A model generated the notes under the pieces. That model was given only the letters and a program-made list of their open reading frames with translations, was not told the DNA's origin and did no database searches. This document shows positions 12,477 through 26,075 of a stretch of DNA of 26,075 bases, one piece after another. The DNA lies in contig CAIUWO010000484.1 of the NCBI GenBank assembly GCA_903902895.1, positions 1-26,075 of the forward strand. The letters run 5' to 3'. The position numbers were made by a program, and so were the translations under genes. The stretch is from Candidatus Hydrogenedentota bacterium. GTDB lineage: Bacteria > Hydrogenedentota > Hydrogenedentia > Hydrogenedentales > CAITNO01. How positions within the stretch are numbered: the first letter of the stretch is position 1; each line of letters starts with the position of its first letter.

Positions 12477-13303
12477 TGCGGCTCATCCTCGTCGGCGCCG
12501 TTGCCCCCCAACCCGGCGCAGGCATGGTAGGGCGGCCACGGTCCAGTCGCCACCGCCGCGATGCCCTGCCCGGCATATCGCGCGTCAATGTCGTCAATCT
12601 GTTCGCGAAAGGCCCCGACGCGGTCGCGGCCCAGCAGGACGGCGACGTGCAGAATCATGTCCGCATTTCTGCCCGACGCCTTGGCCTCCTGCAGCTTCAG
12701 CGGGAACAAGTCGAGGCTCAGTTCCTCCAACTGGGCCTGAACGCTCTTGGCGAGGGCAAAGCCGCACTGCTTGGATAGCCGCAGCGCGTCCCTGTGAAGC
12801 TGCTTCTCCTGGAGATAACGGGTTCCGGGGGACCCGGACGCGCGCGCGCTTTTCGCCGCAAGAACAGGGTCTTGGGCCATGTGCCACGCTGCCGCCCTTT
12901 CTGCGTCCAGAAAGAGCTTGACGGACCATTCCTCCTTGTCGGAAATGTACTCCAGAAACCCGGCAATCTCTTCCGCGTCCGGGGCCACAAAGTCCATGAG
13001 CGCATCGGTGTTGGCAAACACGGCCCCAAACCGAACGGGCAGCACGGGAAACCCTTTCATCAAAGCCTCGGTGACACGCTCATGCGCACAGGCGCGCGGA
13101 ACGAGCCAAGCCGGGTCGGCCAGTCTGGCTTCCGCGTCGTCGCCGGTGAACTCGTCCAGGGAGACCACGCTATACACGGCGGCCACCTCGCCCACGTCAA
13201 GGACACAGACCGCTGCCTGGTCATCCACGCCCACAAGGCCTGCATTTGCCCGGGCACCGGCTGGCGCAAAGCAATACACGTACACACCTTGGTCTGCCAT
13301 CAT
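12473..13303 (-). CDS. gas vesicle protein, GvpL/GvpF family (second paralog)
   Basis: The track ORF is 12473..13486. I place the start at MMADQGVYVYCF (ATG ending 13303). It overlaps the Cdc48-like stop as TAATGATG and is preceded by AGGAAAA. The C-terminus reads ATGPWPPYHAC. The 61 upstream codons are Arg/Gly/Pro-rich read-through. Confidence 0.75.
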   Translation of the reverse strand: MMADQGVYVYCFAPAGARANAGLVGVDDQAAVCVLDVGEVAAVYSVVSLDEFTGDDAEARLADPAWLVPRACAHERVTEALMKGFPVLPVRFGAVFANTDALMDFVAPDAEEIAGFLEYISDKEEWSVKLFLDAERAAAWHMAQDPVLAAKSARASGSPGTRYLQEKQLHRDALRLSKQCGFALAKSVQAQLEELSLDLFPLKLQEAKASGRNADMILHVAVLLGRDRVGAFREQIDDIDARYAGQGIAAVATGPWPPYHACAGLGGNGADEDEPQ

Positions 13304-15474
13304 TATTTTCCTGATTTCAGCGCCCGTGTGGGGCCCGCAGCCCCGGTTCGCCTCGTGCGGATGCCCTCCAGGGCGGCCAGCAGCGCGGCGCGCGTGATTA
13401 GCACCTGCTCCCCCCCGGGGGGTGGGCTGTCCGGTCCGCGTTTCGCCAGCGTCTCCCGGATGGCCCCGATGGCGGCGCTTTTGCATGCGGCCTGAACCTC
13501 TGCCCCTGTGAAGCCGTCCGAGGCGGCCGCCAGTTCCTCGGTGCTCACGTCCTCCGCCACGGGTTTCTTGCGAAGGCCTATGTCGAAGATTTCCCGCCGT
13601 TCTTCCTGGCTGGGCGGCATGATCTCGATCAGAACGTCGAAACGGCCGGGCCGCAGCAGTGCGGGATCGAGCGCATCGAGACGGTTCGTCGCCGCCAGCA
13701 CGACGACACCCGTCAGTTCCTCCACGCCGTCCACCTCGGTCAGAAACTGGCTGACGACGCGCTCCGTGACGTGGGCGTCGGTGCCACCCGAACCGCGCAC
13801 CGGCACCAGGCCGTCAATCTCGTCGAAAAACACAATGCACGGCGCGGCCTGCTTTGCCTTGCGAAAGATTTCGCGCACGGCCTTTTCGGACTCGCCCACG
13901 TATTTCGACAGGAGCGACGGACCTTTAACCGAAATGAAGTTCACCTCGGTCTCATTGGCCAGGGCCTTGGCAACCAGCGTCTTCCCGCAGCCGGGGGCGC
14001 CCGAAAGCAGGATGCCCCTCGGGGGCGTGGTGCCCGCCTGCGTGAAGAGTTCGGGATGCCGCAGCGGCCATTCCACCGCCTCCTCAAGCTGCTGTTTCAC
14101 ATGCCGGAGCCCGCCGACATCGGCCCAGCCCACGTCGGGAACCTCCACGAAGACCTCGCGGATGGCGGACGGCTCCACCTCGCGGAGGGCCTCGGTGAAA
14201 TCATGCATGAAGACGCGCAGCTTCATCAGGGACTCATAGGGAATCCGTGCGGCGGCAAAATCAATCTCCGGCATGATTCCCCGCAGACACACCATGGCCG
14301 CCTCCCGGGCGAGAGCCTCCAGGTCAGCGCCCACGAATCCGTGGGTGATTGCCGCAAGCTGGTCAAGGTCCACGTCCTCGGCGAGGGGCATGCCCCGTGT
14401 GTAGATCTCCAGGATTTCCCGCCGTCCGTTGCGGTCGGGAATGGGCACGCAGATTTCCCTGTCAAAGCGGCCGGGCCGCCGCAGCGCGGGGTCAAGCGCG
14501 TTTGGAATGTTCGTTGCGGCAAGGACAATCACATGCTCGCGTTTGGCCAGTCCGTCCATCAGCGCCAACAGTTGCGCCACCACCCGCTTTTCCACCTCGC
14601 CCAGAACCTGGTCGCGCCGCGGGGCGATGGCGTCGATCTCGTCGATGAAGATGATGCTTGGGGCCTTGCGCGCGGCCTCCTCAAAGATCTTGCGCAGGTG
14701 GGCCTCGCTTTCGCCGTAGAATTTGTGCACGATTTCCGGGCCGTTTACGGAGAAGAACGCCGTCTCGGTCTCGTGGGCCACGGCGCGCGCGATCAGGGTT
14801 TTTCCGCAGCCCGGGGGCCCGTACAGCAGCACCCCCTTCGGCGCGGCCACTCCCAGGCGTTCGAAAACTTCCGGATACCGCAGCGGCAGTTCCACAATCT
14901 CCCGAATGCGGTCAATTTCCCGCCGCAGACCGCCAATGTCCTCGTACGAGATCGCGCTGGACTCTTCGCTCTTCTCGGCGCGCCCCACTTCCATCGTCGT
15001 GGTTGAATTGATAACCACGGGGCCTTTGGGCGCGGTGCTGGTCACCTTGAAATCCACGGAACGCGTTCCGAACAGCGTGGCCCGGATACGGTCACCGACC
15101 ACAACCGGCGTGCCGTCGAGGAGACTGCCGATATAGGTCAGGTCCCGGTCGCGCGGGGCCGTCGTCACCGGCACAATGCACACGCGCTGCGCCGGGCTGG
15201 CCGAAATCTTTCGCACTTCAACCATCTGGTCCAGCGCGGTGCCCGCGTTCTCCCGGGACAGTCCGTCAATTTGAACGCGAGACTGGCCGCGCTGTTCCTT
15301 GTAGGCCGGCATGGCCTTGCATACGGTTTCCCGCTTGCCGACGATGGTCACGATATCGCCAATCTCCAGGCCGAGCGCGGCCATGTCTGCGGGGTCCAAC
15401 CGCGCCAGACCGCGGCCGGCATCTTTGCCCGAAGCTTCGCTGACCTTCAACTTCACCGTCTTGGTCGCTGTCAT
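13303..15474 (-). CDS. Cdc48/VCP-like AAA+ ATPase (N-domain plus D1 and D2 AAA modules)
   Basis: A Cdc48-type N-domain (KLKVSEASGKDAGRGLARLDPADMAALGLEIGDIVTIVGKR) is followed by two Walker A motifs (GVLLYGPPGCGKT and GILLSGAPGCGKT), each with Walker B (IIFIDEID and IVFFDEID) and second-region-of-homology arginines. ATG at 15474 is preceded by AGGAAGGA. Confidence 0.85.
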   Translation of the reverse strand: MTATKTVKLKVSEASGKDAGRGLARLDPADMAALGLEIGDIVTIVGKRETVCKAMPAYKEQRGQSRVQIDGLSRENAGTALDQMVEVRKISASPAQRVCIVPVTTAPRDRDLTYIGSLLDGTPVVVGDRIRATLFGTRSVDFKVTSTAPKGPVVINSTTTMEVGRAEKSEESSAISYEDIGGLRREIDRIREIVELPLRYPEVFERLGVAAPKGVLLYGPPGCGKTLIARAVAHETETAFFSVNGPEIVHKFYGESEAHLRKIFEEAARKAPSIIFIDEIDAIAPRRDQVLGEVEKRVVAQLLALMDGLAKREHVIVLAATNIPNALDPALRRPGRFDREICVPIPDRNGRREILEIYTRGMPLAEDVDLDQLAAITHGFVGADLEALAREAAMVCLRGIMPEIDFAAARIPYESLMKLRVFMHDFTEALREVEPSAIREVFVEVPDVGWADVGGLRHVKQQLEEAVEWPLRHPELFTQAGTTPPRGILLSGAPGCGKTLVAKALANETEVNFISVKGPSLLSKYVGESEKAVREIFRKAKQAAPCIVFFDEIDGLVPVRGSGGTDAHVTERVVSQFLTEVDGVEELTGVVVLAATNRLDALDPALLRPGRFDVLIEIMPPSQEERREIFDIGLRKKPVAEDVSTEELAAASDGFTGAEVQAACKSAAIGAIRETLAKRGPDSPPPGGEQVLITRAALLAALEGIRTRRTGAAGPTRALKSGK

Positions 15475-15492: not shown

Positions 15493-16017
15493 CTACGGGG
15501 TCTTGACGAACTTTACCTCTAGCATGCCGTTCCGGCAGTTGTGGCTCATGCTGCTCTCGGGAAATTCGCCCGGCAAAATCACCTCTTTCTGGTACTTCAT
15601 CGCGCCGCGCGCCGCGCTGATGACCAGAATGTCGTGCGCCAACTCGAGGCAAACGTCCTTCTCGTCGACACCGGGCATCTCGGCCACCACCAGGATGTGC
15701 GTCTCTTCATCGAAGATGTCCACGATCGGCTCGCGCACCTCATCGACCACCGGTTTCCCCGTCCCGGCGTCGGGCCGCACGTTTCCGAAGGGTTCCACCT
15801 CGAACTCGTCCTTGCCCAGGCCAACCTTGACGTTGAAGCCATAAATGCCCCGCAGTTTGCCCCCGGGGCCGTGAATCTCGCCGGACTTGCGCAGTTCCTC
15901 CCCTTTCTCAGCGAGCTCACTAAGCTTCTCCATCATGGCGCCCAGACCGCCGAGCAATTTGCCGATCCCGGAAATGCCTTCGCTGTCAGAGTCTTTCTTC
16001 TTTTCATGCTTGGCCAT
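15493..16017 (-). CDS. Hsp20/alpha-crystallin family small heat-shock protein with a ~60-aa low-complexity N-terminal extension
   Basis: The alpha-crystallin domain reads REPIVDIFDEETHILVVAEMPGVDEKDVCLEL...DILVISAARG...YQKEVILPGEF...NGMLEVKF. It lies 12 nt downstream of the activator gene and 18 nt upstream of the Cdc48-like gene. Confidence 0.8.
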   Translation of the reverse strand: MAKHEKKKDSDSEGISGIGKLLGGLGAMMEKLSELAEKGEELRKSGEIHGPGGKLRGIYGFNVKVGLGKDEFEVEPFGNVRPDAGTGKPVVDEVREPIVDIFDEETHILVVAEMPGVDEKDVCLELAHDILVISAARGAMKYQKEVILPGEFPESSMSHNCRNGMLEVKFVKTP

Positions 16018-16029
16018 AGTGATTGCCTT

Positions 16030-17460
16030 TCATGGTTGAGATATCTTATATTCCTTCACCTTGACGTGTATTGTCTTATAGTCCACGCTCAGTATCCGGG
16101 CGGCTTCCGCCTTGTTCCACCGGGCGTGAATCAGAACCTCCGTGATAACCTGCTTCTCGATGTCCGCCACGGTCTTTCTGACCACTTCTTTGAGCGACAC
16201 ATTTCCCGCGATGCAGTCTATTTCTGTGATCTGCTGGACCGTGTTGGAGGCCGCCTTTTCCTTTTTTGGACTAATCGTCATGTTCTCCGGCAGGATGTAT
16301 TTGTCGCACCGCAGTGCCGCCTGCCGAATGACGTTGCGCAGTTCGCGCACGTTGCCCGGCCACTCAAAGGCAAGGAGCAGTTCCACAGCCTCCTGCGAGA
16401 AGCCCAGAATGTCTTTGGTCAATTCCGCCTTGGCGGACATCAGAAAGCGGGTGGCGAGAAATATGATGTCCTCCGGACGGTCACGCAACGGGGGGATGCT
16501 GATGCTGAATTCACTCAGCCGGTAATACAGGTCCTTTCGGAAAAGATTTTTCTGCACCATGGCGCCCAAATCCTCGTTGGCCGCGCCGACCACGCGGATA
16601 TCCACGTCAATGGGCCGGATCCCGCCGACACGCCAAATCTTCCTCTCTTCCAGCGCGCGCAGCAGTTTGGCCTGGAGCGCGAGGGTAAGGTTTGATATCT
16701 CGTCAAGAAAGAGCGTGCCTCCCGAGGCCATTTCCATCTTGCCGGGCTGTGACTGATGCGCGCCGGTATAGGACCCCTTCTCATGCCCAAACAGCTCGCT
16801 CTCTATGAGCGTCGGGGTTATTGAGCCGCAGTCCACAGGCACGAAAGGCCCCTTCGCGCGGTTGCTCAGGCGGTGGAGGCCCTCCACAATCAATTCCTTG
16901 CCGGTGCCCGTTTCACCGGTGATGAGCACGGTGAAGTCCGTGGGGGCCACAAGTTCAACGCTGGCTATCAGGGCGGCGATCTGCCTTCCCGTGCCCATCC
17001 GTTCGGCGAGAGACTCATGGCCCTCAATGCCGTTGGCATGCGAACCCAAGTAGGGGTAGCGCTTCCTGAGCGCCTTTTGCACGGCAACGATGAACCTTTG
17101 AAGGTCAAACGGCTTTAGCAGATAATCATCGGCGCCGCTCTTTATGGCCTGCACAGCCATGTTGATGTCGCCGAAGCCTGTAATCAGGATCACGGGCATG
17201 CCCGGATAGATTTTCTGTATCTGCTTGAAAAGCTCCATCCCGCCCATTCCAGGCATTTTCAAGTCCGTCACCACCACGTTGACCTTCTCGTTCCGAAGCA
17301 CTTCCAGGGCGCCCTCCCCCGTTGTTGCCTCGAGCAGGCCGCACCCCAGATTTTCGATGGCCCGGCATAACAACGCGCGCACATCATCCTCGTCATCCGT
17401 GACGAGCACCCGACCCCATTCCTTGTCCTCTGTCTTCAAAGCATCGAACTCCTTCGCCAT
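16030..17460 (-). CDS. sigma54-dependent Fis-family response regulator (NtrC-type enhancer-binding protein)
   Basis: Receiver domain (VLVTDDEDD...VVVTDLKMPGMGGMEL...KPF). Sigma54-interaction AAA+ domain (VLITGETGTGKELIVEGLH, and ESELFGHEKGSYTGA as a GAFTGA-type loop). C-terminal Fis HTH (NKAEAARILSVDYKTIHVKVKEY). Confidence 0.9.
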   Translation of the reverse strand: MAKEFDALKTEDKEWGRVLVTDDEDDVRALLCRAIENLGCGLLEATTGEGALEVLRNEKVNVVVTDLKMPGMGGMELFKQIQKIYPGMPVILITGFGDINMAVQAIKSGADDYLLKPFDLQRFIVAVQKALRKRYPYLGSHANGIEGHESLAERMGTGRQIAALIASVELVAPTDFTVLITGETGTGKELIVEGLHRLSNRAKGPFVPVDCGSITPTLIESELFGHEKGSYTGAHQSQPGKMEMASGGTLFLDEISNLTLALQAKLLRALEERKIWRVGGIRPIDVDIRVVGAANEDLGAMVQKNLFRKDLYYRLSEFSISIPPLRDRPEDIIFLATRFLMSAKAELTKDILGFSQEAVELLLAFEWPGNVRELRNVIRQAALRCDKYILPENMTISPKKEKAASNTVQQITEIDCIAGNVSLKEVVRKTVADIEKQVITEVLIHARWNKAEAARILSVDYKTIHVKVKEYKISQP

Positions 17461-18641: not shown

Positions 18642-18871
18642 GGCTTGCTCCCGGCCGGACAGGGCCTGTTGGCCGCGTTCTGGGCGCTGATCTCGCGCGC
18701 CGTTTCCACGGAGGACAGCATGACCTGAAGGCTCAGGTACACAAGGTCGATGTCGGCCACCGAAATCACCACCTCTCCCACTATGACAACCCCGGCGTTG
18801 AGGACGCGGTCAAGGGCTTCGCACAAAGAGACATGCTCTTCGGCTTCCATGTCCCGGGCTGACTTGCTCAT
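18638..18871 (-). CDS. gas vesicle protein, GvpA/J/M (PF00741) family, minor paralog
   Basis: Core reads LCEALDRVLNAGVVIVGEVVISVADIDLVYLSLQVMLSSVETAREI. Its ATG overlaps the ArsA-like stop (ATGA at 18868-18871). Confidence 0.75.
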   Translation of the reverse strand: MSKSARDMEAEEHVSLCEALDRVLNAGVVIVGEVVISVADIDLVYLSLQVMLSSVETAREISAQNAANRPCPAGSKP

Positions 18872-20955
18872 GCGGGCCCCCCTCCGGGTTCGGCAGCGCC
18901 GGGACCGCCGCCGCCGCCGCCGTTGTCCTTCGCCGCGGGGTCGGGCGGGTGCGCCGCACGCCGCTTCCGGACCGCGCGCACAATCGGCGGTGCCGGTGCC
19001 TGCGGCCCCTCAAAGAGAAGCAGGCCAAGGGCTTTGAGGTCGTCCCAGTCGGACGGTTCGGCGAAGCGGTATACCACCGATTGCGCGGTCTGGGCGAAGG
19101 CCCGCCTGTATCGGCTCTGCACGCGGGATTCGGCACGGCCGCGGGCGCTGCAGAAAAGACACTCCGCCGGCGGCGTGGCGAGGTTCAAAAAGAGCGTGGG
19201 AACACGTATCCCGGCATTGCGGCACGCGGCCATCAGGTCCGTGGTTTCCTCAAAGGCCATATCCGTCAGCACGCTGACGGCATAGAGGCTGGTCCTTTCC
19301 GGGTCCACCAGCAGCGCGCGCAGGGCTTTGAGTTGCTTGGACATCTCCACCATGAGCTGCATCATGTTGGGCAGCCGGAACACATTTCTGTACTTGATAA
19401 GGATGTTGAAAAACACCCTGAGCCAGTCCTGGACCAGTCCGGGAAGTTCGAGGAGGCGTATGAGGTGCCCGGTGGGGGCCGTGTCGAGGACAATAGTGCC
19501 GTATTTCCCTGACTGGAGCAGTTCCACCACGCGCGTCAACGCCATCATCTCATCCAAGCCCGGAGGGGACATGTCCATGATGCTTTCCATGACCTCTCGG
19601 TCAAAACTTAGGTCGATGGTCACACCTTTGCCCGTAAGAGAACCGAAAAACGCGGCGACTTCATCGCTGTACTGCTGCTTGAGCGCCTCGAACTCCACCT
19701 TCTCATCCACCTCCAACGCCGACAGCCCCGGGCACAATACGGTCTCCCGCGAGCCAACCACCACCCCGAGTCGGTCAGAAAGGGAGTGCGCCGGGTCAGT
19801 GGAGAACAGGAGGATATTCTTGTCCGGCGCTTGCCGGTTCAAACGAAACGCGGTGGCCGTGGCCAGGGTGGTTTTCCCAACCCCCCCTTTTCCCGCAAAA
19901 AGCAACAGTGATGCGCCGATCGGGGGGAGGGTGGCCGCATGGTCAACGCATGGTTTCGTGGCGGTGTCGGCGGCGCGGGGCTGCGGGCCGACCGACAAGG
20001 GCTTAACGGTTTCCCAGAGGGCCCGGAGTTTCTCGCTCCCCTGCACCCTGCCGGCCTGCAGCGGAATTTCCCAGAGGGCGTGCTTGGCGAAGGTCTGCGA
20101 GGCGATGGAGTACTGTTCATATTGGCGGCCGCGCAGTTCGGAACAGAACGGGCACTGTATGGAGACAGGAACGGTCTGGTTGATCAGGATGTCCATGACG
20201 GGAACTCTCATGCTTTGCAGGGCCTCAAGCAGCCGTCCAGTCTCCTGAACGCTCAGTGGCTCGGCAATCATTACCGGCACGAAGCGGCACCTGACGGCGT
20301 CCTGGAGCAGGGCGGTGATGCAGTCGATGGAGGCCATGGTTTGCTCAATGAACATGTCGGCCTGGCTCTTCGTGTAGAATCCGCGGTAGAGTCTGTACAT
20401 GTAGCGGTTCTGGGCCAGCATGGCGTCGAGGGACTGGTTCCATTTTCGCAGCATTTGGGGCAGTTCGAGGAACCGCAGGGCGTGCCCCGTGGGCGCCGTG
20501 TCGACCACAATGCAGGCATAGGCGCCGGAGTCCACGAGCGCGGCGATCTCGATAAAGGCCATTATCTCATCGAGACCCGGCATGGACAGTTCCAGGAGTT
20601 GCGTGATGTCATAGTCGTCGAGAACCGTTCCGTGCAGGGCTATCTCCCGGAGGTGTCCGGCGTGGGCCGCCTTGAACCTGGCCAGACTGTCCTGGGTGTT
20701 GACCTCCAGCACCTCAAGGTTCGGCAGGGGGGCCGAACCCGCGAAGCAGTCTTCGAGTGAGTGTGCCGGGTCGATGGAGACCACAAGAAAGCGGCGGTCC
20801 GGGGACTGGCCGGCCAGCCGCAGTGCGGCTGCGGCGGCACAGGTTGTTTTTCCCACGCCACCTTTCCCGCCAAACAGAATCAGCCCGAGCCCGGCTTCCC
20901 GGAAAAACGAGGGGGCGTCGGTCTGTGCGGGTTGGTTGGCGTTCGGGGCGTTCAA
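18868..20955 (-). CDS. fused tandem ArsA/Get3(TRC40)-like P-loop ATPase (two complete halves in one polypeptide)
   Basis: Half 1 has GGKGGVGKTT, VDTAPTGHALRFLELP and CPFC. Half 2 has AGKGGVGKTT, LDTAPTGHLIRLLELP and CLFC. The only available start is TTG at 20955, preceded by AGGGTG and overlapping the gvpG stop (AATTGA). Confidence 0.85.
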   Translation of the reverse strand: MNAPNANQPAQTDAPSFFREAGLGLILFGGKGGVGKTTCAAAAALRLAGQSPDRRFLVVSIDPAHSLEDCFAGSAPLPNLEVLEVNTQDSLARFKAAHAGHLREIALHGTVLDDYDITQLLELSMPGLDEIMAFIEIAALVDSGAYACIVVDTAPTGHALRFLELPQMLRKWNQSLDAMLAQNRYMYRLYRGFYTKSQADMFIEQTMASIDCITALLQDAVRCRFVPVMIAEPLSVQETGRLLEALQSMRVPVMDILINQTVPVSIQCPFCSELRGRQYEQYSIASQTFAKHALWEIPLQAGRVQGSEKLRALWETVKPLSVGPQPRAADTATKPCVDHAATLPPIGASLLLFAGKGGVGKTTLATATAFRLNRQAPDKNILLFSTDPAHSLSDRLGVVVGSRETVLCPGLSALEVDEKVEFEALKQQYSDEVAAFFGSLTGKGVTIDLSFDREVMESIMDMSPPGLDEMMALTRVVELLQSGKYGTIVLDTAPTGHLIRLLELPGLVQDWLRVFFNILIKYRNVFRLPNMMQLMVEMSKQLKALRALLVDPERTSLYAVSVLTDMAFEETTDLMAACRNAGIRVPTLFLNLATPPAECLFCSARGRAESRVQSRYRRAFAQTAQSVVYRFAEPSDWDDLKALGLLLFEGPQAPAPPIVRAVRKRRAAHPPDPAAKDNGGGGGGPGAAEPGGGPA

Positions 20956-22947: not shown

Positions 22948-24006
22948 TCAGTCGCCGTCGGCCGGGTTCGAGTCATGCTGATGCGCGCGCGCGGGCGCGG
23001 GCTGGCTGCCCAGCCGGACGCACACCCGCTTGAGGATGTCCTCGATGTCGCCGCCCATCACCCGGTTTCCGTCGTGCATGACTTTGGCGGTGTCCGTGTT
23101 CAGGATGTCCCGGCAGATCCGCGGGAAGACGGGGTCGAGCCAGCCGGCGTGCTCGCCGGGCCGCATCAGAAGGCGCCCCACGGCGATGGCCGAGCGAATC
23201 GTGGGCCGGTGCTTGTTTGCGCCGCCCTCGCGCAGCTCGGTCACCAGGTCGACGATGATCTCGGCGTCCTCGCGGCTCGTGCCCGATTTGGCCATGACGA
23301 TCGCAGTCTCGGTGTCCCGGTCGTAGTGGCCAAGGTTGATGGTGATCAGGCGGTCCGCAAGGGCGTCCTGGGTCTTGTGCGTGCCCGCGTACTCTTCCGG
23401 ATTGGAGGTGAAGATGGCGCGAAAGCAGGGATGAACCGCCAGATAGCCCTCGCCCGAGGTGCGCAGCTTCGGCAGGTTCAGGATCCGCTCCGACAGGATG
23501 GTCAGGAACGCGTTGTTGGCCTCGGGCCGCGAGCGGTTGAACTCGTCGTAGATGAGGGTGTCGCCGCGCTGGCAGGCGGTGGTCAGCCGGTTATCCATCC
23601 AGAGGCTTCTCATTTCCTCCTCTGTCTTCATCACGGAGTGGATATAATTGTCGACCACCTTGTGCTTGCGGTAGCCGGTGTCGCGCCCAATCAGGTCGGA
23701 ACTGGCAAACTCGTCATCGCCGTGAATGAGCGTGACGGACCGGCCGAGCAGGGCGGCCGCGTGGAAGGCCAGCGTGGTTTTCCCGGTGCCCGCAGGGCCG
23801 GCGAAATGCACCGGATAACCCGCGTACAGATACGCCATGGCCCGCTCGGTTAGTTCCTGCACATAGTCGGTTGTGACAAACTCCTTGCTTGCCTCAAGCT
23901 GAACGGTGTCGCCGGAACTTCTGATCCGCTCGACCCCCAGGGGTGCCACGGTCGCGTTGTTGTTGCTCATGCTTACCTTCAATCCTTTCTGCATCGGGCC
24001 AGTCAT
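22948..24006 (-). CDS. gvpN: gas vesicle protein GvpN (CbbQ/NirQ/NorQ/GvpN-family AAA+ ATPase)
   Basis: ERAMAYLYAGYPVHFAGPAGTGKTTLAFHAAALLGRSVTLIHG (Walker A), LIYDEFNRSRPEANNAFLTIL (Walker B) and VHPCFRAIFTSNPEEYAGTH match the GvpN family. An alternative start is at Met 13 (ATG ending ~23970), which has a better GAAGG Shine-Dalgarno. Confidence 0.9.
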   Translation of the reverse strand: MTGPMQKGLKVSMSNNNATVAPLGVERIRSSGDTVQLEASKEFVTTDYVQELTERAMAYLYAGYPVHFAGPAGTGKTTLAFHAAALLGRSVTLIHGDDEFASSDLIGRDTGYRKHKVVDNYIHSVMKTEEEMRSLWMDNRLTTACQRGDTLIYDEFNRSRPEANNAFLTILSERILNLPKLRTSGEGYLAVHPCFRAIFTSNPEEYAGTHKTQDALADRLITINLGHYDRDTETAIVMAKSGTSREDAEIIVDLVTELREGGANKHRPTIRSAIAVGRLLMRPGEHAGWLDPVFPRICRDILNTDTAKVMHDGNRVMGGDIEDILKRVCVRLGSQPAPARAHQHDSNPADGD

Positions 24007-24081: not shown

Positions 24082-24885
24082 TTACTTGCGTCCGCGCCGC
24101 GCCTCGGGCTTGGCGGGCTTGCCGGCCGCTTTGGCCTTGGTCTTTACGGGCGCGGTGTCGGGGGCCTTCGCCTCCGGTCTGGGCGCGCTGACGGCGGGGG
24201 CAGACTGCCTGGTCTCTGCTTTGACGGGCGCGGCGGTGCCAGCCCATGCCTGACGGACCCCGGCGAGGTCGGCGGAGACGGCCTCGCGCAGGGCGTTTAC
24301 GTGCGCGCGCAGTCCGTCGAGAATCTCGGTGCGCGTCGCAAAGTCCTGCGAGGCTTCCTCAATGCGCCGGGCCTCCTCGTCTCGCCGGGAACTGTCGCAT
24401 TCCGCGAAAGTTTCACGCTGCGCCTCGGCCATCTCGTCATGGGCCGCTTGAAACACCACGCGCAGGACATCGACCTCGGCCTTGAGCTCCTCAACCCGCC
24501 CGCAGACCTTGGCTACGAACGCGGCCCGGGCCTGTTGGAGCCTGTCGGCTTCGGCAAGCCTTTCGGCCTCGTTCGCGGCGGACTCATCGCGCACGAGCGC
24601 GGCCCGGTCGGCATGGCCTGTGCGCAATTCGGTCCGAAGTTCCTCGCTCGCCTGGGCGCGCGCCGCATTCCACGTCGCAAGCAATGAGGCGACGGCCTCT
24701 TTCGAACTCTGGGCGAATGCACGCTGCTCTTCCATCAATTCGCGGCGTCCGTTCCGCAATGCGCCAATTTCGTCGCTGAGCCTCGTCATGTCATCGGTAA
24801 GTGTTCCCACAGCTGTTCTCCTCTGGTTATAGACGTTAAAGTGTTCGCCGGTTGACGGACGAAGAGTTTCGCCCGCCAACGTCAT
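24082..24885 (-). CDS. alpha-helical repeat protein at the gvpC position (candidate vesicle-surface protein) with a Lys/Ala/Pro-rich basic tail
   Basis: Start taken at the ATG ending 24885 (the track begins at a TTG two codons earlier). There is an internal duplication: ELMEEQRAFAQSSKEAVASL versus EMAEAQRETFAECDSSRRDE. The C-terminus reads APVKAETRQSAPAVSAPRPEAKAPDTAPVKTKAKAAGKPAKPEARRGRK. It starts 29 nt after the gvpA stop. Confidence 0.6.
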   Translation of the reverse strand: MTLAGETLRPSTGEHFNVYNQRRTAVGTLTDDMTRLSDEIGALRNGRRELMEEQRAFAQSSKEAVASLLATWNAARAQASEELRTELRTGHADRAALVRDESAANEAERLAEADRLQQARAAFVAKVCGRVEELKAEVDVLRVVFQAAHDEMAEAQRETFAECDSSRRDEEARRIEEASQDFATRTEILDGLRAHVNALREAVSADLAGVRQAWAGTAAPVKAETRQSAPAVSAPRPEAKAPDTAPVKTKAKAAGKPAKPEARRGRK

Positions 24886-24914
24886 CTCCAACTCTCAGTT
24901 GCCCTCGCCGGGTC

Positions 24915-25133
24915 TCACGCGGGGGCGGCTGCGGTCGCGGTCAGCCCGATTGCCTCGGCATATTTGAGATAGGTTTCGACAGACGCAATCACCACGCGGG
25001 CTTCCACCGACAACAGTTCTATTCCAACGAGCGAAACCTTGACCCAGGCGTCGATCACAATGCCTTTGTCCAAGATGCGGTCCACGACTTCCGCCAAACT
25101 GGAACTGTCTGTTGATTTCTGTATTTTTGCCAT
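24915..25133 (-). CDS. gvpA: major gas vesicle structural protein GvpA
   Basis: [65 protein letters not shown] is near-identical to canonical GvpA. Start taken at the ATG ending 25133, preceded by AAAGGAG (the track begins at a GTG two codons upstream). Confidence 0.9.
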
Positions 25134-25264
25134 ATCCACTCAACTCCTTTCCGTTTGGAAACCCTCTTTCATGCCGGACTGACGCCTCACGGGCGTCAGC
25201 ACTGCGTGCCGGTGTCCTGACGGCTGGCCCGAAGTGGCCCGGCTCTTGGCGCAACGACTTGGAT

Positions 25265-25283
25265 AAAGCAATACGCATGCCAA
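25265..25283 (-). promoter_or_regulatory. sigma54 (-24/-12) promoter of the gvpA operon
   Basis: The minus strand reads TTGGCATGCGTATTGCTTT, i.e. TGGCAT-N5-TTGCT, with GG and GC 12 nt apart as in the consensus. It is ~120 nt upstream of the gvpA ATG. A sigma54 activator is encoded in the cluster. Confidence 0.55.
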
Positions 25284-25385: not shown

Positions 25386-25446
25386 TTCTATGGATTCTGT
25401 TCCATAGTATGTGGAATAGTTCCCAATTTCCCCGGTTCCACAAGCG
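25386..25446. promoter_or_regulatory. conserved ~60-bp palindromic UAS-like element, copy 2
   Basis: TTCTATGGA-ttctg-TTCCATA-gt-ATGTGGAAT-agtt-CCCAATTTCC-ccGGTTC. It lies 106 bp upstream of the -24 GG of the gvpA sigma54 promoter. Motif order and spacing match the copy at 8670-8730. Confidence 0.5.
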
Positions 25447-25709: not shown

Positions 25710-26075
25710 TCACCGGCTGGGGGGGGTTGAACAAGACTGGCCCAAGCAAGGGCAGTGTTGGACGGGGCACGCTTCCCGCAATTCACGGACCTGCGCATAC
25801 AGCCGGTCTAGCATTTCGGCGCGCGCGACAAAAACCCGCTGGGCCTCGCCGATGCGCTTGGTCTCCACAGCGCGCCTGGCGCTGTCGCAAGTCTCAAGAG
25901 TTTCGCGCTGCGCCGCCGCCATCTCGGCATGCGCGGTGAGCAGGCCCTCGATGCCGGCCCTTATCTCTTCGACGCGCGCACACACTCCCGCGAGAGACCC
26001 CTTGCGCGCGCGGCGCCGCTTCCAGGCCGGGGCGTCCGCGTTTTGGACGGACCCGCACTGCGCCTTCACAAGAGC
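25710..26075 (-). CDS. partial paralog of the 24082..24885 repeat protein; N-terminus beyond the window edge
   Basis: VCARVEEIRAGIEGLLTAHAEMAAAQRETLETCDSARRAVETKRIGEAQRVF aligns with VCGRVEELKAEVDVLRVVFQAAHDEMAEAQRETFAECDSSRRDEEARRIEEASQDF. DNA similarity is visible at 25840-25960 versus 24330-24460. The C-terminus differs (ends CPVQHCPCLGQSCSTPPSR), so it is either diverged or frameshifted. Confidence 0.45.
   Translation of the reverse strand, partial: ALVKAQCGSVQNADAPAWKRRRARKGSLAGVCARVEEIRAGIEGLLTAHAEMAAAQRETLETCDSARRAVETKRIGEAQRVFVARAEMLDRLYAQVRELREACPVQHCPCLGQSCSTPPSR

Follow-up and report, generated by a model that had tools for sequence, protein, structure and literature searches.

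The stretch of DNA analysed here, the window, comprises 26,075 nucleotides from a Candidatus Hydrogenedentota bacterium (contig CAIUWO010000484.1). The window has a G+C content of 62% and carries a gas vesicle cluster of the Serratia type on its minus strand. This work concerns one gene of the cluster, the target, in an open reading frame (ORF) that is intact on the minus strand from 24082 to 24891. The gene for the major shell protein, gvpA, lies just before it, and gvpN, which encodes an AAA+ ATPase, follows directly and defines the target's place as the GvpC position. We consider it fairly likely that the target is a GvpC-type outer-shell protein, a divergent member of a proteobacterial family of the Serratia type. 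A preliminary description of the window, made from its letters alone, had already called the protein GvpC-like, and synteny, family membership and the predicted rod shape bear this out. The Joint Genome Institute (JGI) name of the protein is "chromosome segregation ATPase", and Pfam and NCBIfam scans of the target gave nothing above threshold. A word-index protein search with the target recovered the target alone among the matches listed, because the list was filled up with coiled-coil-like candidates.

The JGI gene call starts at ATG 24885 and gives a product of 267 amino acids (aa), the length also given in the preliminary description. At this codon a GGAG sequence directly abuts the ATG. 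A second possible start, GTG 24810, is preceded by GGAG at a distance of 7 nt. When a query begun at this GTG was used in a full HMMER search, most homologs aligned from their own residue 1 with residue 1 of the query. The 25 additional N-terminal residues of the 267-aa call have no counterpart in P0002, the closest relative. Because of the GGAG spacing and the alignment of homolog N-termini, we prefer the 242-aa product. The true start is probably GTG 24810 rather than ATG 24885, and the 75 nucleotides between them are probably untranslated gvpA-gvpC spacer. The GTG start leaves a gap of 104 bp to gvpA, against a family median of 120 bp. The ORF of the earlier account stands, and its length and start are replaced. 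The features of the locus are collected in Table 1.

Table 1. Features of the target gene and its surroundings in the window
Feature	Position	Strand	Basis or remark
gvpC-type coding sequence, 242 aa plus stop, preferred GTG start	24082..24810	-	ORF; upstream GGAG; homolog N-termini; family hidden Markov model (HMM), 105.5 bits
5' extension of the 267-aa JGI gene call (ATG 24885)	24811..24885	-	GGAG abuts ATG without spacer; absent from homologs
N-terminal cap, residues 1-47, MGTLTDDMTRLSDEIGALRNGRRELMEEQRAFAQSSKEAVASLLATW	24670..24810	-	A1/A3 alignments; HMM domain independent E-value (i-E) 1.9e-18; position frequencies
Degenerate long unit 1, residues 56-118, polar Ala/Glu/Arg stretch then hydrophobic half FVAKVCGRVEELKAEVDVLRVV	24457..24645	-	
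Degenerate long unit 2, residues 119-180, FQAAHDEMAEAQRE, insertion of about 27 residues, FATRTEILDGLRAHVNALREAV	24271..24456	-	
C-terminal cap DLAGVRQAWAG, residues 181-191	24238..24270	-	D, G and R columns nearly invariant in A1/A3
Disordered basic K/A/P/R tail, residues 192-242, ending GKPAKPEARRGRK	24085..24237	-	Charge, isoelectric point (pI), predicted local distance difference test (pLDDT), family endings
gvpN, AAA+ ATPase, directly downstream	22948..24006	-	TIGR02640, 322.7 bits
gvpA, major shell protein, directly upstream	24915..25139	-	PF00741, 3.5e-17; NF006874, 134 bits
Sigma-54-type -24/-12 element TGGCATGCGTATTGCT	25267..25282	-	About 128 bp upstream of the gvpA start
Palindrome TTCCATAGTATGTGGAA (TTCCATA-N2-3-T(A/G)TGGAA)	25400..25416	.	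About 134 bp upstream of the -24/-12 element; coordinates mapped from contig L001
Short paralog, 3' part (residues 24-144), degenerate N-cap plus one long unit	25710..26075	-	BLASTP; full-length P0006

A family between gvpA and gvpN

The full HMMER search with the target yielded 61 cluster representatives at E<=1e-3. A profile search added 63 sequences, none with a Pfam domain and all with names that are hypothetical or unrelated. The family has no Pfam or NCBIfam model. Its members share a plan: an N-terminal cap, MGxLTDDMTRLxxEIxxLRxxR, a variable number of repeats, a C-terminal cap, (F)xxDLxGARxAWxG, and an optional C-terminal extension. The N-cap is the best conserved region. Read from GTG 24810, the target begins (M)GTLTDDMTRLSDEIGALR, which fits the cap pattern MGxLTDDMTRLxxEIxxLR, and its N-cap scores z of about 11 against that of a short paralog at the window edge. 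The C-cap is present as SADLAGVRQAWAG (residues 179-191).

Between the caps, canonical members are strongly periodic. A repeat HMM built from 143 units has the consensus FRKAHAEMARKTKAERAAFVSDLKRTVAGLRKE, of 33 residues. Among 40 long members the strongest self-shift is 33 residues in 16 and 40 residues in 9 (25 of the 40), with z up to 13, and hydrophobicity in canonical members shows a Fourier peak at 3.64-3.66 residues (11/3). An 11/3 period is expected for a straight hydrophobic stripe along an extended helix. This combination of a 33- or 40-residue repeat with an 11/3 period is typical of the family and not universal, and the target lacks it.

The family is also fixed in its genomic place. 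A genome scan with a degenerate DNA pattern for the N-terminal motif returned 55 loci. For 54, a gvpA homolog in the same orientation stands within 800 bp upstream, at a median gap of 120 bp; the remaining locus cannot be judged because its sequence begins 143 bp before the gene. Downstream, gvpN was found in 45. Taken together, these neighbours place the family at the GvpC position. The loci come from Syntrophales, Desulfobacterales, Geobacteraceae, Methylomonas, Methylococcus, Phycisphaerae, Rokubacteria, Chloroflexota, Acidobacteria and others, and those of the Desulfobacterales include the gas-vacuolate Desulforhopalus vacuolatus DSM 9700.

On plasmids of Methylocella tundrae (L058 3201-3944) and Spartinivicinus ruber (L057 3568-3861), the gene that separates gvpA from gvpN is annotated as hypothetical. 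A tblastn search of plasmids with a canonical member gave no match, and the family HMM scored these two genes at only 17 and 8 bits. Their products end in ...AIWRG and ...SIWFG, resembling both the family C-cap and the ...SIFG of cyanobacteria, and they may be still more distant relatives at the GvpC position. The gvpA-gvpN gene of Octadecabacter was tried as a family member and is unrelated.

The link to a studied protein runs through Serratia sp. ATCC 39006, for which the same gene order is given, gvpA1-gvpC-gvpN-gvpV (Tashiro et al. 2016, PMC4982088). Its cluster likewise holds gvpF, gvpG, gvpK and genes for a sigma-54 activator, an Hsp20-like and a CDC48-like protein. Serratia GvpC is non-essential and strengthens the vesicles: when gvpC is deleted, the vesicles collapse at 0.14 instead of 0.43 MPa and keep their size (Tashiro et al. 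2016, PMC4982088). We read the termini of this protein from the cloning, deletion and reverse-transcription PCR primers (Tashiro et al. 2016, Table S3). The gene starts AAGGAGAATCCT-ATG GGA TGC TT(A/T) ACA GAC GGT ATG GC, or MGC(L/F)TDGMA; primer gvpCF ends AAGGAGAATCCTATGGG, and gvpC_5R and RTGVL2 carry the frame on (GGA TGC TT(T/A) ACA GAC GGT ATG GC). This N-terminus, next to MGTLTDDMTR in the target, agrees at 7 of 8 constrained family positions. Because of this match we assign the family to Serratia-type GvpC, a likely identity that rests on nine N-terminal residues taken from primers. At its other end Serratia GvpC reads ...TSLAV and has no basic end, whereas the target has a KRGRK-type tail. 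The target also has long degenerate units, in a comparison where Serratia GvpC is represented by its nine plus five terminal residues. We found no sequence features of Serratia GvpC in Hurt 2023, the EMBO J 2024 paper or the Nat Methods 2025 paper.

Likeness extends in part to other GvpC proteins. In the 15 cyanobacterial sequences that we compared, an N-cap precedes repeats of 33 residues and a C-cap that ends FRxDLFxSIFG, and some go on into a tail rich in Pro, Ser and Lys. Like the target, cyanobacterial GvpC is encoded between gvpA and gvpN and is an extended all-helical rod; its C-cap ends in an aromatic residue plus Gly (FRQDLFVSIFG vs FAADLAGARRAWFG), and a Pro-rich tail is optional. 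With the target's family it shares the repeat length of 33 residues and a hydrophobic period of 3.66 residues. The conserved positions differ, FRxAHxEMAxxTKxxRxxFVSxLK in the family and L4, F11, L12, R19, L30 and F33 in cyanobacteria (Huber et al. 2023), and the target itself has neither repeat nor stripe. Cyanobacterial GvpC runs along the GvpA ribs, with the conserved residues of the repeat all on one helical face (Huber et al. 2023). A 33-residue, 11/3 geometry shared without detectable homology points to the GvpA lattice as the constraint.

Haloarchaeal GvpC is likewise a surface protein of helical repeats, less regular at 32-40 aa, with a distinct C-terminal domain (PMC9501494). It is larger (42 kDa), and that domain is a globular zinc finger and not a disordered basic tail. 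The NCBIfam and Pfam scans gave no sequence match to haloarchaeal GvpC. A comparison with GvpO had been proposed in the preliminary description and turned up no similarity: the target has no Pfam match to PF05800, and hhalign against Octadecabacter GvpO gave E=0.52. Exchangeable apolipoproteins (PF01442, PF07464) resemble canonical members in having amphipathic helical repeats, based on 11 residues, that lie flat along a surface. Matches of canonical members to the apolipoprotein repeat are below threshold (39 bits against a cutoff of 90) and the target gives none, so the likeness is one of analogy and not of membership.

Helix, units and the missing repeat

The target is predicted to be a rod. 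In an AlphaFold2 model built on a 24-row alignment, residues 3-189 form a single unbroken helix with pLDDT mostly above 90, in line with the all-helical protein predicted earlier. The helix terminates at W189, inside the C-cap, and residues 190-242 are disordered, with pLDDT of about 50. The helical core is acidic (net charge -11, pI 4.9). Large hydrophobic residues are found in three amphipathic segments, residues 1-47 (28%), 98-120 (48%) and 157-191 (29%). These are separated by spacers rich in Ala, Glu and Arg, residues 48-97 (12% hydrophobic, 36% charged) and 121-156 (8% hydrophobic, 47% charged). A heptad-based coiled-coil dimer was considered and is not indicated, because a period of 3.5 residues is not significant in the target. 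The target shares two conserved cysteines (VCGRVEE... and ...ECDSS, at about 24400-24505 on the minus strand) with the paralog and P0002. In the target they stand 35 residues apart, about 5 nm on the predicted helix, so that pairing within one molecule is impossible.

An internal duplication marked by an E(L/M)xEEQR..F motif had been proposed for the target. It does not survive testing: the aligned copies score 21, against 23+/-4.4 for shuffles (p=0.68), and BLASTP of the N-terminal against the C-terminal half gave E=0.49. Self-comparison found a best shift of 58 residues (z=3.1). A weak case can be made, by way of the paralog, for a different duplication of two units of about 60 residues. Compared directly, unit 1 (56-118) and unit 2 (119-180) give p=0.066. 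Unit 1 scores z of about 6 against the single unit of the paralog, a score equalled by 0 of 2000 shuffles, and the paralog unit is 49% identical to unit 2. Against the repeat HMM, unit 1 weakly matches positions 7-31 (i-E 0.076), and unit 2 matches in two pieces, positions 1-13 and 16-32, with about 27 residues between them. The expanded unit (..ANExxRxAEA...RxxF..) is also present in the closest relatives, P0002-P0005 and P0007, and adjoins canonical repeats in P0022, P0051 and P0052. Since it recurs in relatives, it is a conserved variant and not the result of random decay.

Several results weigh against a GvpC-type role for the target. A 33-residue period is absent from it (z=1.2 at shift 33). 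The preliminary description had also found it to be without the 33-aa repeat of GvpC, which is correct for this protein and misleading as to its family. Fourier analysis found no significant hydrophobic period in the target (peak 3.38, p=0.25), and its hydrophobic power at 11/3 is 4.2, compared with 110-150 in canonical members. Matches to the repeat HMM are weak and split (i-E 0.08-0.3). The target helix is acidic, with its net charge of -11, while the canonical repeat consensus is net basic. The profiles PF01304 (Gas_vesicle_C) and TIGR02641 miss the target and eight family members at E<=1, against 160 and 133 bits for a Nostoc control. In hhalign the family alignment A1 and the cyanobacterial alignment A2 gave E=0.04 and a probability of 1.3%; A3 against A2 gave E=0.0015 and 17%, over 62 columns in a consistent repeat register. 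Finally, the link to Serratia consists of nine residues read from primers and not of a full sequence.

These losses could mean that the target is a decaying or repurposed copy that no longer coats the shell. Such a protein would act through its caps only, for instance as an assembly factor or a partner of GvpA or GvpN while the vesicle grows, or have little function, and the paralog would be a remnant. The vanished periodicity and amphipathic stripe fit this idea, as do a paralog with no C-cap, a degenerate N-cap (MDGIAKDMSML) and an unrelated Cys-rich end, and a close relative, P0002, that is truncated to 171 aa and has no C-cap. We nevertheless regard decay as quite improbable. The ORF is intact and has a good ribosome-binding site, both caps and the end of the tail are conserved, and a confident single-helix model is unlike the outcome of random decay. 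The modified long unit, common to P0002-P0005 and P0007 and to P0022, P0051 and P0052, argues for selection. A GvpC-type coat protein with an altered rod remains the reading that we favour.

Basic tails and two isoforms

The last 47 residues of the target hold 12 Ala, 8 Lys, 7 Pro and 5 Arg (68% K/R/P/A) and have a net charge of +9 and a pI of 11.1. The Lys/Ala/Pro tail noted before is thus real, and it is modelled as disordered. Its supposed rarity among Gvp proteins is not. A C-cap can be recognised in 168 family members. Of these, 82 stop no more than 8 residues past it and 61 have a net-basic tail; the remainder carry a helix-hairpin-helix (HhH) domain (15) or another extension (10). Some cyanobacterial GvpCs also have P/S/K tails. 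The target ending, GKPAKPEARRGRK (...RRGRK), resembles the ...EKPAKxxTKxKRGRK of many long copies, including those of the Syntrophales type. The tail itself has no match in Pfam or NCBIfam.

The extension follows a rule of position. Among 39 copies next to gvpN, a basic tail is found in 22 and an HhH domain in 8; the latter matches HHH_5 at up to 31.8 bits (cutoff 27). All 18 copies that are parted from gvpN by another gvpA are tailless. L005, L016, L017, L019, L024, L042, L049, L053 and other loci share one arrangement: a gvpA is followed by a short copy without a tail (87-103 aa), and a further gvpA by a long copy with one (211-317 aa), after which comes gvpN. In L024 the short and long copies are identical over their first 59 residues. 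This identity points to a recent duplication, or to gene conversion, that took in gvpA as well. The HhH module of P0039 and P0041, the C-terminal ~100 residues (DDLTxIxGIGP...LNxAGIxTFxQLA), has matches to HHH_5 and DUF4332; its sub-threshold matches include the C-terminal extensions of alphaproteobacterial L21, NuoE and S2 and of the phasin PhaH. In a Geobacteraceae metagenome-assembled genome (L046 1476-2285) the tail is built of VAPVKA-type hexapeptide repeats, with self-shift peaks at 6, 12 and 18, and is strongly histone-H1-like.

The target locus obeys this rule. The diverged copy that the preliminary description saw at the window edge is a true paralog of the target (BLASTP, 43/87 identical residues, 49%, E=1e-20). 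It could be followed past position 26075 on L001, a second contig from the same JGI sample, which reaches about 2 kb beyond the edge. The two contigs differ at 9 positions over 11,994 overlapping bases and probably stem from two closely related strains. On L001 the paralog is whole (1935-2369, 144 aa) and lies behind three tandem gvpA copies; it is followed by a 570-bp spacer, gvpA and the target. A second gvpA-proximal locus upstream had been suspected and is present, with three more gvpA copies, the 144-aa paralog and a sigma-54-type promoter motif of its own. The paralog is a complete gene and not a full copy of the plan: its N-cap is degenerate, and it has neither C-cap nor basic tail. We looked for a frameshifted C-cap downstream of it, and none was present in any of the three frames. 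In place of the C-cap it has a Cys/His-rich end, CPVQHCPCLGQSC (window 25710-25790, minus strand; P0006 residues 103-115), possibly a small metal-binding knuckle. A zinc-finger motif has been reported in the C-terminal domain of haloarchaeal GvpC.

Because tails and HhH domains are borne by copies next to gvpN and by none of the distal copies, the extension could also be read as the business end of a tether. The helix would hold the vesicle, and the K/A/P tail or HhH domain would bind DNA or polyphosphate and serve nucleoid positioning and inheritance, as in the phasin PhaF; stiffening would be a secondary role or be left to the tailless isoform, and the rod of the target would be a charged spacer instead of a continuous shell-binding stripe. 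PhaF of Pseudomonas putida joins a long amphipathic granule-binding helix to a K/A/P-rich, H1-like DNA-binding C-terminal domain and shares out the granules between daughter cells (PMC3574117), and the H1-like AlgP spaces polyphosphate granules (PMC9239181). The target similarly joins an acidic rod to a +9 tail. Basic tails (22) and HHH_5 domains (8), both of kinds known to bind DNA non-specifically, occupy the same C-terminal site; some of the tails are H1-like repeats, such as VAPVKA in L046, and PhaH has a C-terminal extension that is like the HhH module of relatives. The likeness to PhaF is one of design: we found no sequence homology between the target and PhaF or AlgP, and the organelle differs. 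Tails of this disordered, basic kind are widespread, and a neighbour's acidic rod, the GvpA surface or membranes are equally possible partners. Neither Pfam nor NCBIfam recognises the tail, the Serratia protein ends in ...TSLAV, and cyanobacterial GvpC tails are P/S-rich and not strongly basic. We therefore hold a tether to be unlikely and keep to a GvpC-type shell protein whose tail is specific to one isoform.

Cluster setting and a proposed coat

The region upstream of gvpA looks like a sigma-54-dependent promoter. The -24/-12 motif (TGGCAT-N5-TTGCT) has one match in the window, against 0.10 expected. It recurs upstream of gvpA on L001 (749-764 and 2797-2812) and in 22 related loci, and a sigma-54 activator encoded at 16030-17460 is consistent with it. 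Further upstream lies a palindrome, for which L001 has three strand-hits at two sites (613-628 and 2663-2679), against 0.00 expected, both 134-136 bp upstream of a -24/-12 motif. The palindrome is a candidate binding site of a GvrA-like activator. Its half-site, TTCCATAG, was tried as an element in its own right and is not enriched window-wide; only the full palindrome upstream of the sigma-54 motifs is. As each gvpA block is preceded by both a -24/-12 motif and a palindrome, the promoter-gvpA-gvpC unit was duplicated as a whole. On the minus strand, the gap between gvpA and the target and the 570-bp spacer contain no intrinsic terminator and no sigma-70 promoter, and a hairpin in the spacer is not significant (z=-1.25).

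A basic tail in a gene adjoining a promoter region with a sigma-54 motif and a palindrome might suggest a histone-like, DNA-binding regulator of the gvp genes that acts at the 570-bp region. The preliminary description, which thought of a regulatory partner, went in this direction, and we found no support for it. The cluster already has a gene for a sigma-54 activator and one for a PAS histidine kinase. Throughout the family the place between gvpA and gvpN is constant (54 of 55 loci), about half of its C-cap members are tailless, and Pfam and NCBIfam detect no DNA-binding domain in the helical part. The likely Serratia homolog is structural; its loss weakens vesicles, and no loss of expression is reported. 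A regulator is thus a very remote prospect.

The rest of the cluster is of the Serratia type. After gvpN comes a 111-aa gene at the position of Serratia gvpV, which follows gvpN in almost all related loci, then gvpF, gvpG, a gene for a two-domain ArsA/GET3-type ATPase, and gvpK flanked by the second and third genes of the GvpA family. Next in order are genes for a sigma-54-dependent response regulator, for a protein of 174 aa and for an AAA ATPase of the CDC48 type, then two further gvpF/L genes and one for a PAS histidine kinase. The ATPase of the ArsA/GET3/TRC40 family (695 aa, 18868-20955, minus strand) has its gene between gvpG and the second gene of the GvpA family. On a Nostoc sphaeroides plasmid (L059 9482-9780) an "ArsA family ATPase" lies beside gvp genes too, which suggests that an ArsA-type targeting or insertion ATPase is recurrently linked to gas vesicle genes. 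The 174-aa protein (15493-16017, minus strand), at the Serratia gvpH position, has no Pfam match at 1e-5; Hsp20 is annotated there in Methylocella. The CDC48-type double AAA ATPase (13303-15474, minus strand) is at the gvpZ position.

From these parts we propose the following picture. The target would probably be co-transcribed with gvpA from the sigma-54-type promoter. Its single helix would form a rod of about 28 nm, placed on the outer face of the GvpA shell, which it would stiffen; binding and stiffening are proposed by analogy with Serratia and from the periodicity of the family. In typical members a straight 11/3 hydrophobic stripe would run over the whole rod, with a repeat every 33 or 40 residues that fits the periodic GvpA lattice. 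In the target, shell contacts would be left to the three remaining amphipathic stretches, the N-cap, residues 98-120 and residues 157-191 including the C-cap, joined by highly charged helical spacers. With spacers between its contacts, the protein would bridge longer distances with fewer contacts. The disordered basic tail would project from the shell as a trait of the gvpN-proximal isoform. The 144-aa upstream paralog would be a tailless second isoform, expressed with the extra gvpA copies.

GvpC determines the stiffness and collapse pressure of gas vesicles and is the main engineering handle for acoustic reporter genes, for which the Serratia cluster is the current bacterial standard. GvpC is a known kind of protein, and the one of Serratia has been studied; the repeat geometry of the family and the isoform rule we did not find described in the literature covered. 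Current views are not overturned, and the potential for real surprise is limited to the function of the tail. Serratia-type GvpC apparently belongs to a broad family that is annotated everywhere as "hypothetical", and since caps and repeat can be defined, an HMM could name these genes. Their clusters usually hold two isoforms, an upstream one without a tail and a gvpN-proximal one with a basic tail or HhH domain. As a natural variant, whose spaced contacts would stand in for the continuous binding stripe, the target may help in considering how stiffness could be tuned.

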